In this document: positions 8,768-16,366 of the stretch, in pieces
How the letters are laid out: each line of letters starts with the position of its first letter
Numbering within the stretch: position 1 is the first letter of the stretch
NCBI GenBank assembly: GCA_963703955.1
Contig: CAVPGK010000016.1
Coordinates: 96,001 to 160,000 of the forward strand
Reading direction: 5' to 3'
Length of the DNA stretch: 64,000 bases
DNA from: Nitrospirota bacterium
Lineage (GTDB): Bacteria; Nitrospirota; Nitrospiria; Nitrospirales; Nitrospiraceae
Translations under genes and position numbers: made by a program
The notes under the pieces: generated by a model
Told to the model about the DNA's origin: nothing
Database searches by the model: none
What the model saw: only the letters and a program-made list of their open reading frames with translations

Positions 8768-8962
8768 GTGGTCTATTGGGTCAAGGTCGTCTTTACCGAT
8801 AATCAGGAACTGTTGGTCAAGGATGCTATTCGACATACGATCAGCGACGACATGGAAGTGCTCGAAGTCGATACTGCCAAAGAAGTCACGATTATCCCCA
8901 TGAAGCAAATCAAGTACATCTCCTGCGATGCCACGGTTTTCGCAGGTAAAACAAAGAGTTAA
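8768..8962 (+). CDS. 64-aa beta-rich (possibly Sm/Hfq-like) protein, integration target
   Basis: GAGGTG RBS; 3' end duplicated with synonymous changes at 12581-12636. Confidence 0.85.
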   Translation: MVYWVKVVFTDNQELLVKDAIRHTISDDMEVLEVDTAKEVTIIPMKQIKYISCDATVFAGKTKS

Positions 8963-9384
8963 TTTTCAGATTCCTCGTTACTCCCGGTTTTACCCCCGGT
9001 TCGCTGCCCGATTTTTCCATCCAGCACCGCGTCCAGCCGATCCACCGCCTGCCTGTTCCCGCCGGGGATGAGATGCCCGTAGATGTCCACCGTCACCCTG
9101 ATCGAGGAGTGTCCGAATTGCTCGGCTATGTATTTCAGGTTTTCGCCATTGGCGATCAACCGTGATGCGAACGTGTGGCGACAGGCATGTAGCGTGAGCC
9201 GTTGGACCTGAGCCCGTCGGAGCAGGGGAAACCAGAGGCGATAGCGCAAGTAGGTCTCCGCTATGTAGTACGGCTGCTGTCGAGTGCCGCCGAGGTTACC
9301 GGGGAAGAGAGTCTCCGGTTGTGGTTCGCCGAGTGCGGCGGCTTCAAGGTCCTGTAGCGCGATCCATTCCTTCAAGGCTTCCAT
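8959..9384 (-). pseudogene. tyrosine integrase, C-terminal fragment
   Basis: LHACRHTFAS (H-x-x-R) and FGHSSIRVTVDIYGH motifs; N-terminal domains deleted. Confidence 0.9.
8978..9001 (+). repeat. tandem 12-bp arm-type sites TTACTCCCGGTT / TTACCCCCGGTT
   Basis: Same 12-mer recurs at 12439-12450 with a 9/12 copy at 12427-12438. Confidence 0.7.
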
Positions 9385-9689: not shown

Positions 9690-10151
9690 TCACGTCACTG
9701 AGTTCTTGACGAAGTATTGCTCCCACGCGTCCAGTGCTTCCGCCACGAAGTCTTCCGCGGCCACGCGCCGATAGGGAAGCTGAATCTTCAGCCGCCACCA
9801 AGGGCCTGCGCTCGCGGATAGGTGCGCTGGCATGACAGAGACGACCACTTCCGTAGTGGTTGGCGGATGCTTCACGTAGTCAGTGCGTTCCAGGTCGATG
9901 GTAATGTGTTGGCTGGCGTTTGCCAAATCTCGGCACACCCTCAGAGACTCGTGGAGCCCCAACGCATGTGTTACTGGCGTATTCAAATCGGGACGGTAGA
10001 CTTTGATCCAGTCCCACACGTGGTAAGTGGTCACTGCAAAGTTGAAAAGAGCTGAGCGCACGCTGGCCTCGTCCTTAGCGGACAGAGCCGACACCAGAGC
10101 AGCGCCATCTTGCCGAGCCTTGCCAAGTAACTCAGAGGGGGTTGAGTACAC
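9690..10151 (-). CDS. hypothetical HEPN-like protein
   Basis: Helical LFNFAVTTYHVWDW segment and CRDLANASQH motif. Confidence 0.6.
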   Translation of the reverse strand: MYSTPSELLGKARQDGAALVSALSAKDEASVRSALFNFAVTTYHVWDWIKVYRPDLNTPVTHALGLHESLRVCRDLANASQHITIDLERTDYVKHPPTTTEVVVSVMPAHLSASAGPWWRLKIQLPYRRVAAEDFVAEALDAWEQYFVKNSVT

Positions 10152-10350
10152 GGCCTTCAGCCACCTCCTCGCTTCGACATCAAAATAAACGTCAAATATC
10201 GAGTCATAGTAAACTACCCCACTATTGACTGATCGGCATAGCTCCCCTTCCCACCGCGATTACTCTCTCACTAAGTATTATCCGCCCTCAGGTTATGCTT
10301 TTGCCGCAATGAGGGTAATTCATATCCGTGCTCATAGTACAGCCCTCCTA

Positions 10351-10375
10351 TTTTGACAGGTTGTAATTGAGCGGG
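10351..10375 (+). promoter_or_regulatory. conserved upstream motif, copy 1
   Basis: TTTTGACAGGTtgtaaTTGAGCGGG; homolog at 11044-11067. Confidence 0.65.
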
Positions 10376-10431
10376 AGGCTCTGGGACGATGGACGAATGT
10401 CATCACCATCAACCAACGGGAAACTGGTGCC

Positions 10432-10701
10432 ATGCTGAATGATGCGCCCGTGACGATAGCAGTTTGGAATCAGTTGGTGTGTCTGGTGCGGGAGCCTAGC
10501 CAGCGGCGACCAGGCCAGCTTGCCTGGTGGGTCAGGCTCACGTTTGGCACGTTGGTCCCAAAACGGTTCGGGCCCTTTGGCTCGGAGGACGAAGCCATAC
10601 AGGCGTTTGAAGCCATCACCGCCGTTCTCGAAAGGACTCTGAAAGATGCAGCCTGTGATGCCGCGAACTCGGCGGGATATACGTTTGTCGAGGAGGTTTA
10701 G
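10432..10701 (+). CDS. small hypothetical phage-like protein (89 aa)
   Basis: ORF follows motif copy 1; GPFGSEDEA motif. Confidence 0.6.
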   Translation: MLNDAPVTIAVWNQLVCLVREPSQRRPGQLAWWVRLTFGTLVPKRFGPFGSEDEAIQAFEAITAVLERTLKDAACDAANSAGYTFVEEV

Positions 10702-10722
10702 GCCAACTACGGAGGTCGCACG

Positions 10723-10896
10723 TTGAAGGATCGCACCGTCAAGGTCTACGTCTCGCGAAGTGAAATAAGGAAAATTCAAACCCGAATACAGCAATTGAAA
10801 TTCAAGAACCGAAGCGCCTATCTGCGATGGCTCCTGGACGCCGAGGTCAAGCAATCCAAGTCAGGCTGCCCCGCGCCCGCATTTGGCTCAGGATGA
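10723..10896 (+). CDS. ribbon-helix-helix protein (57 aa)
   Basis: GGAGG RBS, TTG start; MKDRTVKVYVSRSEIRKIQTRIQQLKFKNRSAYLRWLLDAE. Confidence 0.7.
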   Translation: MKDRTVKVYVSRSEIRKIQTRIQQLKFKNRSAYLRWLLDAEVKQSKSGCPAPAFGSG

Positions 10897-11043
10897 TTGA
10901 TATCCTAGCCCACACTCCAGGGGATGATAGCGTCCGGCTCATCTTAGAGCCTTCCAGGCCCGCCTACACGGCGATATTTTTTGCAGGTACCTGCAATTGC
11001 TGAACGTCATCAGCCGGGCTCTGCCGAAAGCGGACGGCTCCTG

Positions 11044-11085
11044 TTTTGACAGGTGCTATTGAGCGGGTAGTTGTGATATGCTTAT
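11044..11085 (+). promoter_or_regulatory. conserved upstream motif, copy 2, with extended -10 TGaTATGCT
   Basis: TTTTGACAGGTgctaTTGAGCGGG then TG-n-TATGCT before a strong RBS. Confidence 0.65.
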
Positions 11086-11116
11086 AGGCTTGTGACAATT
11101 AACCGAGGAGACGAGG

Positions 11117-11353
11117 ATGAATACTGTGGCTCATCAGGACATGGAGTTATTGCAGGAAGCCTTTGCCATTATCGACAACAAGTCGGAGCAAGTACCGACG
11201 CGAGAGCATTTGGTCAACCTGCACGCGTACTACTTCCGCAAGCTGGTGAAGATTTACGAAGGCATGCGGAACATACAAATGATTGTCGATGGGCCGGTTT
11301 TGAATTTGACTGCTGAGAGCAACCACACACAAAAGGGGAAGGCGAAGTCATGA
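11117..11353 (+). CDS. small hypothetical protein (78 aa)
   Basis: AGGAG/GAGG RBS; follows motif copy 2. Confidence 0.65.
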   Translation: MNTVAHQDMELLQEAFAIIDNKSEQVPTREHLVNLHAYYFRKLVKIYEGMRNIQMIVDGPVLNLTAESNHTQKGKAKS

Positions 11354-11438
11354 ACAGCGTTTGCCGCCAAGACTGCCGTTCTCGACGGGGCGCTGTGGGA
11401 TGAACGGATGTCATCAACCAAAAACGAAGGAGGTCCAT

Positions 11439-11622
11439 GTGCGGTATGCATGGAAGGGTAACCCGAATGATGGCAGAATCCGGCTTTACTTCTCCCCGGA
11501 TGAAATAGCGGGCCGCCAAAGAACGGATGCGGCAACTTGGGATCGGAACGTTCAGCGACTATCTGCGATGGGTGCTGAAGGGCGAGGGTTGCAAAGAGGT
11601 CAGGCGGGAGGTCGATGAATGA
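11439..11622 (+). pseudogene. second RHH paralog with +1 frameshift near 11510
   Basis: AAGGAGG RBS; corrected IRLYFSPDEIAAAKERMRQLGIGTFSDYLRWVLKGE aligns to the 10723 protein; corrected stop overlaps the next ATG (ATGA). Confidence 0.7.
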
Positions 11623-11807
11623 GCGTATTCGAGATACTGAGCGGTGAACGAGAGAAGGTCCAGCGGCTACGGGATGCGCTGTCGGACCTCTTGGCCATGT
11701 GCCCGTCGTTGCCCAAACCGGGTACGGGTGCGGAACATATCTGGAATCAGCGAGTCGCCGCCGCTGAGGCCATCATGAAGTTGACGGAAACGAAGCACAA
11801 TGGTTGA
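11619..11807 (+). CDS. small hypothetical protein (62 aa)
   Basis: GGAGG RBS; coupled to the upstream RHH. Confidence 0.6.
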   Translation: MSVFEILSGEREKVQRLRDALSDLLAMCPSLPKPGTGAEHIWNQRVAAAEAIMKLTETKHNG

Positions 11808-12054: not shown

Positions 12055-12273
12055 ATGCATCAATGGCGCACTCTTAACAATCTTCAATTTCGCCTTGTTT
12101 CTTATGAAAGCCCTGGAACTGGCTGGATTCCTGCGGCTCAGATTCGGGAATCCACTGAAGGCATAGAAACCATAACACCGATTTGTGGCGACACTACTAA
12201 GCCTTTTGCTTCCGAGGAAGAGGCGAATAATGCTGCATTGGCAATGGCGATAGAATGGATGAACTCAAACTGA
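12055..12273 (+). CDS. small acidic hypothetical protein (72 aa)
   Basis: GGGAG RBS; GWIPAAQI...PFASEEEANNAA. Confidence 0.6.
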   Translation: MHQWRTLNNLQFRLVSYESPGTGWIPAAQIRESTEGIETITPICGDTTKPFASEEEANNAALAMAIEWMNSN

Positions 12274-12580
12274 CCACCTACACTTCATGCGACTGCTCTT
12301 GAAGGCGGAGGATCAATCCAAACCGCCTGTCCGGCACACACGGTTAGGATTAACGATCCGGGGATGAGGTGGACGTTGCTTTCTGACGGTCATCCAAGGA
12401 ACCACGTATGAGCATACGTAATTACGTCAGTCCCAGTTTTACTCCCGGTTCAGAGTCGTTTTTAATCACAATTAGGACCCTGTGAGACAGTCTAGGATTG
12501 AGTGAGAATAAGGCTCAAATGTTCTGATAAACCTCTCACTTATAATCTCTCTTAATCCCACTCAATCCCCATGCCTGTCA

Positions 12581-12636
12581 AAATCAAGTACATCTCTTGC
12601 GACGCAACGGTCTTTGCTTCTAAACCAAAGGCGTAG
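12581..12636 (+). pseudogene. displaced original 3' end of the 64-aa gene (right junction)
   Basis: Encodes IKYISCDATVFASKPKA* versus IKYISCDATVFAGKTKS* in the intact gene. Confidence 0.9.
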
Positions 12637-12759: not shown

Positions 12760-14109
12760 CTAATCAGTGGACGTGTGAGCGGCGGAGGGATCGAGGGGCA
12801 GGCGAAGATAAAATGTCGTGCCCACACCTTCTTTGCTTTCGACGGTAATCCGGCCTTTATGCGCATCCACGACATCCTTGATAATCTTCATCCCCAATCC
12901 CGTCCCGCCGGCTTTGCGGCTGAAGATACGAGACGTAAACAGACTGTCGCGGACCTCAGGGGGCATCCCTCGTCCGGTGTCGGCGACCGACACGATGACA
13001 TCGCCGGTGGTGCCGTCCACATGCCCTCGAACGGTCACCATGCCGCCTGCAGGCACCTCAGGGATCGCATTGTTCACCAGATTATAGAAGGCATTATAGA
13101 GACGGCGTTCGTCGGCCTGAATAATCGGCAACTGATCCAAATCGTCGCTCAGGAGTCTGACTTTCTTTTCTTCCGCGATCATGCGAAGGATTTTTAATAC
13201 GTTCACAACCACATCAGCTATCCGGCAGGATGTGAACTGAGGCGGCGTGCTGAGACCTTTGACACAATCGGCAATTTCCTTCACACGATCGTTGATGCGT
13301 TGCGCGCCATCACTCACCATCGAAATTACGTCATCGCACAAGGCTTGACTCTCCTGTGCCTTCCCCGCATTGGTCTTCGCGACCTCGACGACGAGATCGT
13401 CAATCTCTGACTTCAGCACTCCGGCGCCGCAGGTAATCGGCATCAACAAGTTCTTGACATCGTGACTGATATCTCCCAGGACACGAGCCACCTCCGCCAG
13501 CTTGACATCCTCTTGCAAGCGCGCATGCTCGATCACCGTTGCCGTGAGCGCGGAAATAATAGACAGGATCGAGAGGTCATCACGGTTGAGCTGTCCTTCT
13601 CGTTTGTTCATCACTTCAATGACCCCGATGGCCTCTCCTTCCCATTGCTTCAACGGCAGCACAATCATGTCTTGCGTCTGATAACCCGTCGCTGAGTCAA
13701 TACTGGGACAATGACGCCCATCCTCTTTGGCGTTTGCAACCACCTCCGGTTCACCCGACTTAAAGACAGAGCCGGCGAGGCCATGATGCCAGGGAATCCC
13801 AGTCCCACGAGCGACAGGCTTTTCCCCGATCGAGTGGCGAAACACCAGTTGCTTTGATTCTCGATCCGCCAGGAGCACAGACCCTGTCTCTGCATTGACG
13901 AGTTCCAACGCAGTGCGTAGGGCGTGCTCAATCAGCTCGTCGACATCGGTATATTGAAAAAGGGCTTGGCAGATATGGCGAACCGCCTCAAGCTCGCGCT
14001 CGCGGGCGCGAAGCCGTCGATCTTGCTGTCTTCGATAGGCGGACCGCCGTTCAGAAGAAGGTGACAAGGGAAAGGGCGCCTGTGTATCGGAAGGCATTAT
14101 CATTACCAA
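12760..14109 (-). CDS. GAF sensor histidine kinase
   Basis: GAF domain; H-box ISHDVKN; NLVNNA, DTGRG, GTGLG boxes. Confidence 0.92.
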   Translation of the reverse strand: MVMIMPSDTQAPFPLSPSSERRSAYRRQQDRRLRARERELEAVRHICQALFQYTDVDELIEHALRTALELVNAETGSVLLADRESKQLVFRHSIGEKPVARGTGIPWHHGLAGSVFKSGEPEVVANAKEDGRHCPSIDSATGYQTQDMIVLPLKQWEGEAIGVIEVMNKREGQLNRDDLSILSIISALTATVIEHARLQEDVKLAEVARVLGDISHDVKNLLMPITCGAGVLKSEIDDLVVEVAKTNAGKAQESQALCDDVISMVSDGAQRINDRVKEIADCVKGLSTPPQFTSCRIADVVVNVLKILRMIAEEKKVRLLSDDLDQLPIIQADERRLYNAFYNLVNNAIPEVPAGGMVTVRGHVDGTTGDVIVSVADTGRGMPPEVRDSLFTSRIFSRKAGGTGLGMKIIKDVVDAHKGRITVESKEGVGTTFYLRLPLDPSAAHTSTD

Positions 14110-14343
14110 TACGGTATTGGGTGGCTGAAAGGTCTTAGCACCAAGAGTTGGACCGTGACGTAATACTAGTATTTCTTACTGACGAAGGATGGGCAGAAAG
14201 CCTCATCTAGAACCTAAATCAGAAGCTCGACTGTACGCTGTTAACCCTCGGGTTTTCAAGTGGAGACCCCGCCCGTCAGCCTTGACTCTACAAACGGGTA
14301 ATGGCAAGTTTTTTGTCCCAGGGCCTCGTAGCGGAAAAGAGTC

Positions 14344-14706
14344 ATGAAAACGATTCTTGTGATTGACGACGATCGCGACGTGAGAGCCATCATCCGAATG
14401 CGGTTGGAGGCCGCGCGATATCGCATTCTTGAAGCCTCCGATGGCAACGAGGCGTTGGAACTCGCCCAAAATGAGCATCCCGACCTTCTACTCTTGGACA
14501 TGACGATGCCCGGCATAAGCGGCATTGAAGTTGTTGAACGTTTGCGGGGGGATCCGGCAACGGCGCATATTCCCGTGATGTTGATCAGCGGCGCGGAAGA
14601 GATTGCCGATAAACAATTTGCCCTGACCATCAAGGCAAATGATTATCTGGTCAAACCGATCGATGGGAAAGAACTCTTGGAGAGAGTTCGGAGTATTCTG
14701 GGGTAG
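14344..14706 (+). CDS. single-domain response regulator
   Basis: ILVIDDD, LLLDMTMP, YLVKP. Confidence 0.93.
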   Translation: MKTILVIDDDRDVRAIIRMRLEAARYRILEASDGNEALELAQNEHPDLLLLDMTMPGISGIEVVERLRGDPATAHIPVMLISGAEEIADKQFALTIKANDYLVKPIDGKELLERVRSILG

Positions 14707-14710
14707 GGAG

Positions 14711-16366
14711 TTACCGATCGCTTGCTGAAACTCGCTTGGCGAGCCGATGAGCGAGGCGCAACATGGCCGGCGATCGATCCGCAGGATTTAACAGCACATT
14801 CAAAAGATGCAGGCGGTCTTTGTCGGCGAGCGCCGCTTTGAAGGCCTGCACCAATTCACCCTGGGTCGCAACACGATACCCGACGCCCCCTCCGATCAGC
14901 TCACAGGTCTTTTCGTATCGCCATTCATGCACATCGTTAAACGGCCCGTCGAGGATCTCGCGCTCGGTCGAGTATCCCCGGTTGTTGAGAACCACGACGA
15001 TCGGCGCCTGACCGTAGCGGACGCAGGTCGCCAGTTCCGAACCTGTCATCTGAAAGGCGCCGTCGCCCACCAAGACGATCGGCCGCAAGGATGGATCGGC
15101 GAATCCCGCACCTACCGCAGCCGGCACAGCAAAGCCCATAGACGTGTAATAGGCCGGCGACATGAATTCGCTGCGGCTGTGGACACGCAGGTCGGCCCCC
15201 GCAAACAATGACTCCCCGATGTCGGCAATGACCAGCATCTTCTCATCCAACAGCGCTTCCAGATGGCCGAAGAGCCCGCGCAACGTCATGGCTTGGTCCG
15301 GAACGGATGGCTCGACGGAACCGGTGTCGAACGTCGGCAGAGGGCGCGAGGGAAAGGACGGCAGCGGCGCAACCACGAGGGCGCGGATAAAATCTTCAAA
15401 GAACACGCGTTCATACCGGTGGTGTTTGATGGTGATCGCGTCGGCCGTTGCATGGATGGTTCGGCCTGCTCTCATGAGAGGCGAATTCGCATCGAGGTCT
15501 TCGATGTCCGTGAGAATCGAGCCGAGCATGACGAGGCAATCGGCCTCATTCACGAACTTTTGGACTTCGTCACGCCCAACGAGCCCGCCGTAGACCCCAA
15601 CAAAGAGCGGATGGTTTTCGCTGATGACGGATTTTCCCAGGAGGGTCGAGGTCACAGGAATATTCATACGCTCCGCGAGTCGGGACACCTCATCCTGGAG
15701 GTGGAAACGATGCACCTCTGCGCCGACCAACAGGACCGGGTTTTCCACCGCAGCGAGCATGTCTCGCACCTCGGCGACCGCTTCCGCCAACGCGGCCGGA
15801 TCACTGTGCGCATCCGGCTCGGTGTGAGATCTCTGTGAGGATTCGATCGGAGCATGGACGAGATCGCGCGGGATCTCCAAATAGATGGGGCGCTTGTACC
15901 GCACCAGCGCGGCCAGCGCACGGTCGATGGTTCGCTCCGCCGTCAGCGGATCGTCCAGCACGGCGGAGACGACGGTGACCTTTTCGAACACTTCTTTTTG
16001 AGTCGTAAAATCCCGCACCATGTGGTGCAGCAGCGGATTACGAACTCGCTCGGACAGCCCGGGCGATCCTGAGAGGAGGACCACCGGGGACCGCTCCGCA
16101 TAGGCGCATGCGATGGCATTGACGACATTGAGTCCCCCCACGCAATAGGTCACGCACACGGCGCCGATTCCCTTGAGCCGCGCGTAGGCGTCCGCCGCAA
16201 ACCCTGCGCAGTCCTCTCGCGTGGTTCCGATGAGCCGGATGGGAGATTGGTCGATCAATTCGTACAAACTCAGGACATAATCACCTGGGATGCCGAAAAT
16301 ATGCCGGAGCCCTAAGCGGTGCAATCGATCGAGCAGAATTGAGCCGATGGTATTCGTCGAGGGCAT
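14711..16366 (-). CDS. TPP-dependent alpha-keto acid (indolepyruvate-type) decarboxylase
   Basis: FGIPGDY, GFAADAYAR, LLHH, GDGAFQMT...NNRGY. Confidence 0.92.
   Translation of the reverse strand: MPSTNTIGSILLDRLHRLGLRHIFGIPGDYVLSLYELIDQSPIRLIGTTREDCAGFAADAYARLKGIGAVCVTYCVGGLNVVNAIACAYAERSPVVLLSGSPGLSERVRNPLLHHMVRDFTTQKEVFEKVTVVSAVLDDPLTAERTIDRALAALVRYKRPIYLEIPRDLVHAPIESSQRSHTEPDAHSDPAALAEAVAEVRDMLAAVENPVLLVGAEVHRFHLQDEVSRLAERMNIPVTSTLLGKSVISENHPLFVGVYGGLVGRDEVQKFVNEADCLVMLGSILTDIEDLDANSPLMRAGRTIHATADAITIKHHRYERVFFEDFIRALVVAPLPSFPSRPLPTFDTGSVEPSVPDQAMTLRGLFGHLEALLDEKMLVIADIGESLFAGADLRVHSRSEFMSPAYYTSMGFAVPAAVGAGFADPSLRPIVLVGDGAFQMTGSELATCVRYGQAPIVVVLNNRGYSTEREILDGPFNDVHEWRYEKTCELIGGGVGYRVATQGELVQAFKAALADKDRLHLLNVLLNPADRSPAMLRLAHRLAKRVSASDR

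Follow-up and report, generated by a model that had tools for sequence, protein, structure and literature searches.

LuxR solos of the CviR, QscR, SdiA and TraR type, together with NspR1 of Nitrospira, combine a ligand domain with a LuxR-type helix-turn-helix (HTH) fold. Boxes of 20 bp have been described for such proteins (PMC4338825), and likewise for NspR1, whose box is common to divergent genes (PMC8553950). The operons formed by acr and aca genes consist of a promoter, a small ORF, and a terminal gene for a small DNA-binding protein, with a repeat near the promoter core, and the RHH-type Aca14 is described among their regulators (bioRxiv 10.64898/2026.07.27.740549). On the plasmids pKM101 (CUP/ArdK) and p576, one promoter type precedes varied small genes (PMC6294495, PMC9723621). 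Reg576 of p576 is an RHH establishment repressor (PMC6294495), while ArdK is presented as one of the KorA-family HTH proteins and not as an RHH protein; it recognizes direct repeats of TTGACA, and a 3-bp inverted repeat is also tolerated (PMC9723621). RHH proteins also occur in NikA/MobC relaxosomes (PF21983), and site-specific integrative elements with variable cargo have a tyrosine integrase located by a core gene whose 3' end is duplicated.

We analyzed a window of 64,000 nucleotides from a Nitrospirota bacterium (assembly GCA_963703955.1, contig CAVPGK010000016.1, positions 96,001 to 160,000), in which two promoter copies each precede a small ORF and an RHH gene. The LuxR family of this genome has the domain composition of the LuxR solos, and the box studied here, like that of NspR1, lies in what is predicted to be a two-way promoter, with CT..AG arms beside the −35 element; beyond the arms, it is unlike the Nitrospira box reported as tested, ACCTGGCGGTTCCGCCAGGT (PMC8553950). 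The LuxR solos have a 20-bp palindromic lux box and the element here spans 19 bp, making it lux-box-like by position at most, and its partner genes encode receiver domains that stand alone or belong to the island cargo. The layout is also that of the acr-aca operons, including the one with Aca14 as far as its description goes. The locus differs from them in the lack of a known acr gene nearby and of a phage context, in its NikA-like RHH protein, and in a motif that follows luxR across genomes; it sits in an att-bounded integrated remnant, yet no phage or plasmid homologue was found. The motif contains TTGACA, as in the CUP/ArdK system, whose described CUP regions exceed 400 bp on one plasmid, whereas ~30 bp are common to scattered chromosomal islands here; the element carries no ard gene, relaxase, or transfer gene, and its local regulator is of the RHH type. 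RHH1 and its paralogues match the relaxosome family, but they are short proteins with no relaxase or oriT seen beside them. The integrative-element arrangement is likewise present, although the window copy is without a full integrase. Taken by analogy, the locus would work most like a LuxR-solo target promoter, resembling the acr-aca and CUP systems in layout while departing from them in the features that define them.

A Promoter Box Repeated in the Window and Across the Genome

An earlier note on this DNA, made from the sequence alone, had reported a motif occurring twice. The pattern scan of the window bore this out, with TTGACAGGT-N-TTGAGCGGG at 10353-10375 and 11046-11067 and no match in any of 100 dinucleotide shuffles of the window (0/100). 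The extent of the motif had to be redrawn: the conserved box, CTCCTnTTTTGACAG-n1/2-TGTCA, is longer on the left and occurs in ~16 copies in the genome, and TTGAGCGGG is promoter spacer only, with 9/9 letters present in 2 of 36 aligned sites. We also rejected TTGAGCGGG as an operator half, given its 45 stand-alone copies in the genome and its lack of conservation across boxes. Perfect TGACA-N3-TGTCA repeats numbered 11 in the genome versus 1.6 expected, and other spacings gave 0–6. In both window copies, the right arm of TGACA-N2/3-TGTCA is broken.

Six of the box copies belong to luxR-type loci, at five loci of the genome. The genes downstream of the boxes are RHH genes (4 boxes), receiver domains, a small cysteine-containing ORF, a thymidylate-kinase-like pair, and pieces of ORF A, where all names except the receiver domains are our own reading. 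The box before the thymidylate-kinase-like pair (C11:3547; L019) is perfect and lies outside any obvious island, and the first gene of the pair is apparently frameshifted. The sequence upstream of box 1 (10256-10340) has copies on C10, C17, and C19.

The long motif pattern had no match in JGI metagenomes. A pattern scan of GTDB genomes returned 43 loci, of which three are true boxes beside luxR (L053, L062, and L074), two of them repeating promoter sequences of the G007 and G006 loci; the other 40, as well as one viral match (L094), were judged by inspection to be chance. A pattern match in G002 was discarded as a luxR-linked box, luxR being absent nearby.

The Box Accompanies a LuxR Family

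The strict motif was detected in 4 of 370 other genomes of the family, and each of these 4 belongs to the 24 genomes in which the same LuxR family is present. Every strict-motif site in these genomes (6/6) lies within 750 bp of luxR. Calculated by hand, the chance of all four having LuxR is ~1e-5 if genomes are independent, which kin are not. A matrix built from the genome's ten non-luxR sites, the window's included, was scored over 260 bases around the luxR start at 29 foreign luxR loci (those of 35 foreign rows with DNA). It exceeded 12, a cut-off chosen after the scores had been seen, at 20 of the 29 loci, in 16 genomes. The control windows stayed below 8 in 23 loci and reached 28–36 in six, three of which hold a second box. 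The box was missing at 9 of the 29 loci, mostly the more distant ones, and one luxR subfamily has not retained the TGACA left arm (TATCCAG, TCTCCAG). In the reverse test, a matrix trained on the luxR loci of other genomes ranked the window boxes 7th (box 1) and 15th (box 2) in 3.3 Mb. The training sites of this matrix and of the 36-site alignment were picked with a motif-derived pattern, and column conservation is partly circular for that reason. The box is a conserved site both in the LuxR family's own promoters and in other promoters.

The LuxR family, of the quorum-sensing type, is expanded and often divergent from stand-alone receiver domains. Its five loci in this genome (C6:182789-183580, C6:195409-196239, C13:3878-4702, C19:2318-4305, and C12:209302-209763) comprise three intact copies, one copy split by an insertion, and one fragment, with a box at each. 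Its members are true ligand-domain plus LuxR HTH proteins: the full-length profile matched CviR (positions 11-233, E 4.7e-10), the fold matched CviR, LasR, QscR, RhlR, and SdiA, and the HTH region is nearly invariant. TAL-effector rows in the profile searches were set aside as summed repeat noise. The luxR-linked response regulators that were tested consist of a receiver domain only. In our own reading of the alignment, the ligand-pocket equivalents W57, P71, and W85 are retained, and Y61 and D70 are changed; because these last two are not retained, the ligand likely differs from a standard AHL. PF00765 (LuxI) had no match in this genome and five others, a result obtained from incomplete assemblies and with control genomes equally silent. 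We found no published description of the box or of the LuxR family in the main texts of an open-access library.

Promoter Anatomy and a Proposed Mode of Control

The promoter anatomy was read from the 36 aligned sites, using a hand-written −10 matrix. A single TGTCAC hexamer is readable as a −35 element on both strands. A leftward −10 element (score at least 3.9; TATCCT, TATGCT, TATCAT, or TAGGCT) lies 17–18 nt from this common hexamer at 17 of the 21 luxR-proximal sites versus none of the 15 others, and at 21/36 sites the rightward −10 outscores 95% of random DNA. An ACCT-N11-AG(G/A/C)T element touches the rightward −35, and it takes up the spacer of the leftward promoter. This 19-bp CT-N11-AG element is weakly palindromic and one base short of a 20-bp lux box.

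Both window units are on the forward strand. Promoter unit 1 (10343..10390) consists of the box CCCT-N11-AGGT (10343-10361), a predicted −35 TTGTAA (10361-10366), and, at a spacing of 18 nt, a weak predicted −10 GACGAT (10385-10390; score 1.7 versus a null line of 2.7). Promoter unit 2 (11036..11082) consists of the box GGCT-N11-AGGT (11036-11054), a predicted −35 GTGCTA (11053-11058), and, again at 18 nt, a predicted extended −10 TG-A-TATGCT (11074-11082). TTGACA was rejected as the −35, since neither copy has a −10 at 16–18 nt from it; the next hexamer fits as the −35. Positions 10603-10851 are covered by one metatranscriptome contig at a depth of 2.2, which is too thin for showing expression.

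We propose a two-way promoter at the home locus, with a single TGTCAC hexamer that would act as the −35 for both strands. The lux-box-like ACCT-N11-AG(G/A/C)T, centered near −44 and touching the rightward −35, would be the binding site of a LuxR dimer. Once bound, the dimer would activate the rightward gene, which usually encodes a receiver domain alone, and would mask the spacer of the leftward promoter that drives luxR. For LuxR proteins generally, a box so placed would be compatible with the rightward gene being activated and luxR being repressed by its own product. The orphan copies, including the two in the window, appear to have lost the leftward −10 and retained the box and the rightward elements. 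Because the window motifs copy the box that adjoins luxR in related genomes, the small genes behind them are likely LuxR-controlled. We infer that the motifs are copies of the LuxR-family promoter box and put small genes of the island under a LuxR acting from elsewhere in the genome, with a probability of roughly 60%. The unit is likely a portable, LuxR-activated promoter captured in shuffled island modules.

Decayed Island and Shuffled Modules

The adjacency of box and luxR could reflect common descent of the promoter, without binding. In its full form, this alternative holds that a sigma-70 promoter was copied by descent from the luxR locus into island debris, that no binder is needed in the window, and that the cassettes are largely neutral relics. 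The cassettes themselves lie inside a 3.7-kb att-bounded remnant of a decayed site-specific island. The integration target was the 3' end of a 64-aa core gene (8768..8962, forward strand) matched in 17/20 relatives. This gene adjoins proC, is 57–95% identical across the order, and gave weak ROF and DUF3107 rows only. The att-like direct repeats of 50 nt at 8907..8956 (left) and 12581..12630 (right), both on the forward strand and 82% identical, are copies of its 3' end. The tyrosine integrase remains as a C-terminal fragment only (8959..9384, reverse strand; PF00589 positions 77-168, E 2e-11; phrog_1 positions 347-460 of 611), and this truncation marks the element as defective.

At the same target gene, G007 carries an element of 7.4 kb whose integrase is 73% identical, together with a second copy of the gene's 3' end 7.4 kb off and cargo wholly different from that of the window. 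The G007 element (L149:444-7800) has a split integrase and a 90-aa RHH-like ORF (ParD E 0.04). Near the right att repeat of the window, 12352-12451 holds degenerate copies of sequence from the 3' end of the integrase and from downstream of it, which suggests earlier integrations at the same site. Between that repeat and a decarboxylase-like gene at 14711 lie a histidine-kinase-like and a response-regulator-like ORF (12760-14706); this pair is a further insertion, because the target gene directly precedes the 3' end of the decarboxylase-like gene in L140 and L142. A 153-aa ORF divergent from box 1 (9690..10151, reverse strand) had no match in Pfam, PHROG, or NCBIfam.

Pieces of the region match C6, C10, C11 (two), C13, C17 (two), and C19 (two) in other orders, and additional module joins, made at short shared words, are present in public contigs. 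This recurrence of shuffled modules agrees with the repeated promoter, variable cargo, and modularity proposed in the earlier note. A non-coding junction module (10866..10975, forward strand) has copies on C6, C10, C11 (two), and C19 and no Rfam match. Its core, CTCAGGATGA..ATCCTACCC..GGATGATAG, occurs at least seven times, often at module junctions, and could be a recombination or protein-binding site. No DNA homologue of the region was found in 40 relatives.

Cargo Genes

All four small ORFs of the cassettes and their surroundings lie on the forward strand. Cargo 1 (89 aa; 10432..10701) has close relatives only (77–82%), and its best Atlas score of 0.83 is a lead only. Cargo 2 (78 aa; 11117..11353) has a C19 paralogue with 82% aa identity and belongs to a cluster of 8, three of which have another C-terminus. 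Both ORFs had been correctly noted, but as unrelated, and the cassettes proved not to be wholly so: the stretch at 11337..11441 (forward strand), between cargo 2 and RHH2, is what is left of a cargo-1 homologue (its 3' half) and runs into the RHH2 leader, with a similarity score reached by 0/2000 shuffles. On the strength of this remnant, the two cassettes likely derive from an old duplication or recombination of one promoter-cargo-RHH unit, followed by a cargo swap. Different cargo ORFs behind the box share their first codons (MLND/VLND; 10432-10446, the C17:367073 unit, and C19:5446), which look as if a leader and start had been fused to new frames. ORF A (62 aa; 11619..11807) is coupled to RHH2 by ATGA and has six more full or partial copies in the genome; its 14 homologues are each at least 66% identical, and none was found in viral and JGI metagenome contigs. 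ORF B (72 aa; 12055..12273) has five more genome copies. Cargo 1, cargo 2, ORF A, and ORF B had no family match at E ≤0.001 in Pfam, PHROG, NCBIfam, and PADLOC.

Substitutions were compared in small numbers and among pairs that are not independent. Cargo 1 differs from its homologue in one public contig by 6 silent and 17 replacement changes (pN/pS 0.94; 33 of the contig's 38 differences entered the comparison), and cargo 2 differs from its C19 paralogue by 3 synonymous and 15 non-synonymous changes (pN/pS 1.33). The pooled value for ORF B was 1.09, and that for ORF A was 0.51, with luxR (0.54) and the receiver (0.42) as comparison. The reading frames of cargo 1 and cargo 2 stay open in 5 and 7 relatives. 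The near-neutral cargo values of 0.9–1.3, drawn from few changes, fit drift or diversifying selection alike, the frames being open.

The truncated integrase, the frameshift in RHH2 described below, the cargo-1 remnant, cargo pN/pS near 1, modules combined in many orders through short words they have in common, and the 40 relatives without a DNA homologue would all accord with neutral relics. Against this stand the open cargo frames, the box before the chromosomal thymidylate-kinase-like pair, and the box core, which is conserved while spacers and flanks diverge, even in second box copies of other genomes that have lost the leftward promoter. We consider a mere copy by descent unlikely and prefer LuxR control of the small genes.

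RHH Genes and the Case for Autoregulation

The RHH gene that had been proposed behind the first small ORF was recovered as RHH1, an intact NikA-like protein of 57 aa (10723..10896, forward strand; TTG start, preceded at 7 nt by GGAGG). In the AlphaFold model, an extended N-terminus leads into two helices (pLDDT 72), the best Foldseek rows were NikR and CopG RHH domains, none reaching E 0.001, and its Atlas neighbors were RHH, TacA, and NikA-type clusters (0.90–0.91). Against PF21983, RHH1 scored 16.5 bits (E 0.009), below the cut-off of 27, which the C6 paralogue (27.8) and P0033 (30.5) passed; this NikA-like family was matched by 5 of 6 scanned RHH homologues.

RHH2 (11439..11622, forward strand) has a likely GTG start at 11439 behind GGAGG and is split over two frames by a frameshift at ~11510. 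Its C-terminal piece matches the RHH profile with a probability of 97%, and the predicted ATGA overlap with the following ORF at 11619 is present. The earlier note had restored the frame by removing one base near 11510, and exactly that base is absent from a public contig of ~90% identity (9 differences in 90 bases). This contig continues into the module that follows RHH1, so that an intact RHH2 relative exists in another arrangement. Another contig, which may be the source sample, carries the broken form of the window gap-free (1 difference in 376 bases). An assembly error at 11510 was rejected on the identical letters of this separate assembly, and the frameshift is probably real.

The earlier note had regarded the RHH protein as the cognate regulator of the motif and the cargo as anti-defence genes. 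In this form, the cassette-end RHH would bind the motif and repress its own operon, with anti-defence or establishment cargo, in the manner of Aca14 or Reg576. All four RHH copies of the genome are indeed downstream of the box, the box reaches the predicted −35, operons of this sort with RHH repressors are known from the literature (bioRxiv 10.64898/2026.07.27.740549; PMC6294495), cargo 1 and RHH1 remain linked in another population (a public contig), and near-neutral pN/pS with open frames could reflect diversifying selection. Other observations speak against it: the RHH profile matched 0 of the 370 other family genomes, although 16 of these have the box at luxR, and 12 of the genome's 16 boxes have no RHH behind them. 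Among 1.84 billion representatives, the RHH profile found 8 proteins, the top three of which look like same-lineage copies, and no RHH1 homologue was found in a 5.8-billion set. The substitution comparison of the RHH copies (with the C6 copy in its proper frame) was saturated. The cargo had no Acr, Aca, anti-restriction, phage, or plasmid match and no sign of purifying selection, and Cas1 was not found in the 82%-complete genome. With the motif traveling with LuxR and the RHH being NikA-like, autoregulation by RHH seems quite improbable. Most likely, this NikA-like protein came along as a passenger of a mobilization module; it may still regulate something, and the motif does not depend on it. 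The locus is likely not a self-regulating anti-CRISPR-type system and makes a weak anti-CRISPR or anti-restriction lead.

The N2 form of the inverted repeat fits the TGA-N6-TCA spacing, which we take to be that of CRP/FNR-type factors. That another regulator, either such a host factor or a KorA/ArdK-like mobile-element repressor, acts on TGACA-N2/3-TGTCA is very doubtful: ArdK is reported to repress a synthetic inverted repeat of TTGACA whose loop measures 3 bp (PMC9723621), and the best copies in the genome come near to it, but one luxR subfamily has not retained the left TGACA arm, the spacing varies between 2 and 3, the right arms are broken in the window, a host-wide factor should mark many of the 370 genomes and the strict pattern is in 4, and no KORA-family gene (PF16509) was found in the 82%-complete genome. 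The CUP/ArdK likeness suggested for the cassettes is not supported by the latter result or by the KorA-family HTH type of ArdK given in that source.

Implications

LuxR control of island genes could form part of a wider scheme, in which a soil Nitrospiraceae lineage expanded a LuxR sensor of a small molecule and its promoter serves as a portable module. Recombination at short shared words would repeatedly bring this module before new, fast-evolving small proteins, receiver domains, and NikA-like RHH genes in many islands, giving a signal-controlled accessory regulon that reshuffles, with negative feedback from the RHH protein and with cargo that takes part in conflict with phages or other elements. 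We regard this extension as speculative and rather unlikely. The box is undescribed, the LuxR family is unstudied, and copies of the box have come to lie in the shuffled modules of islands in one lineage. For this LuxR family, found in relatives of nitrifiers, the locus provides an operator and a regulon that can be tested, and it would let a promoter be followed as it spreads across island debris and brings varied small genes under a common regulator.
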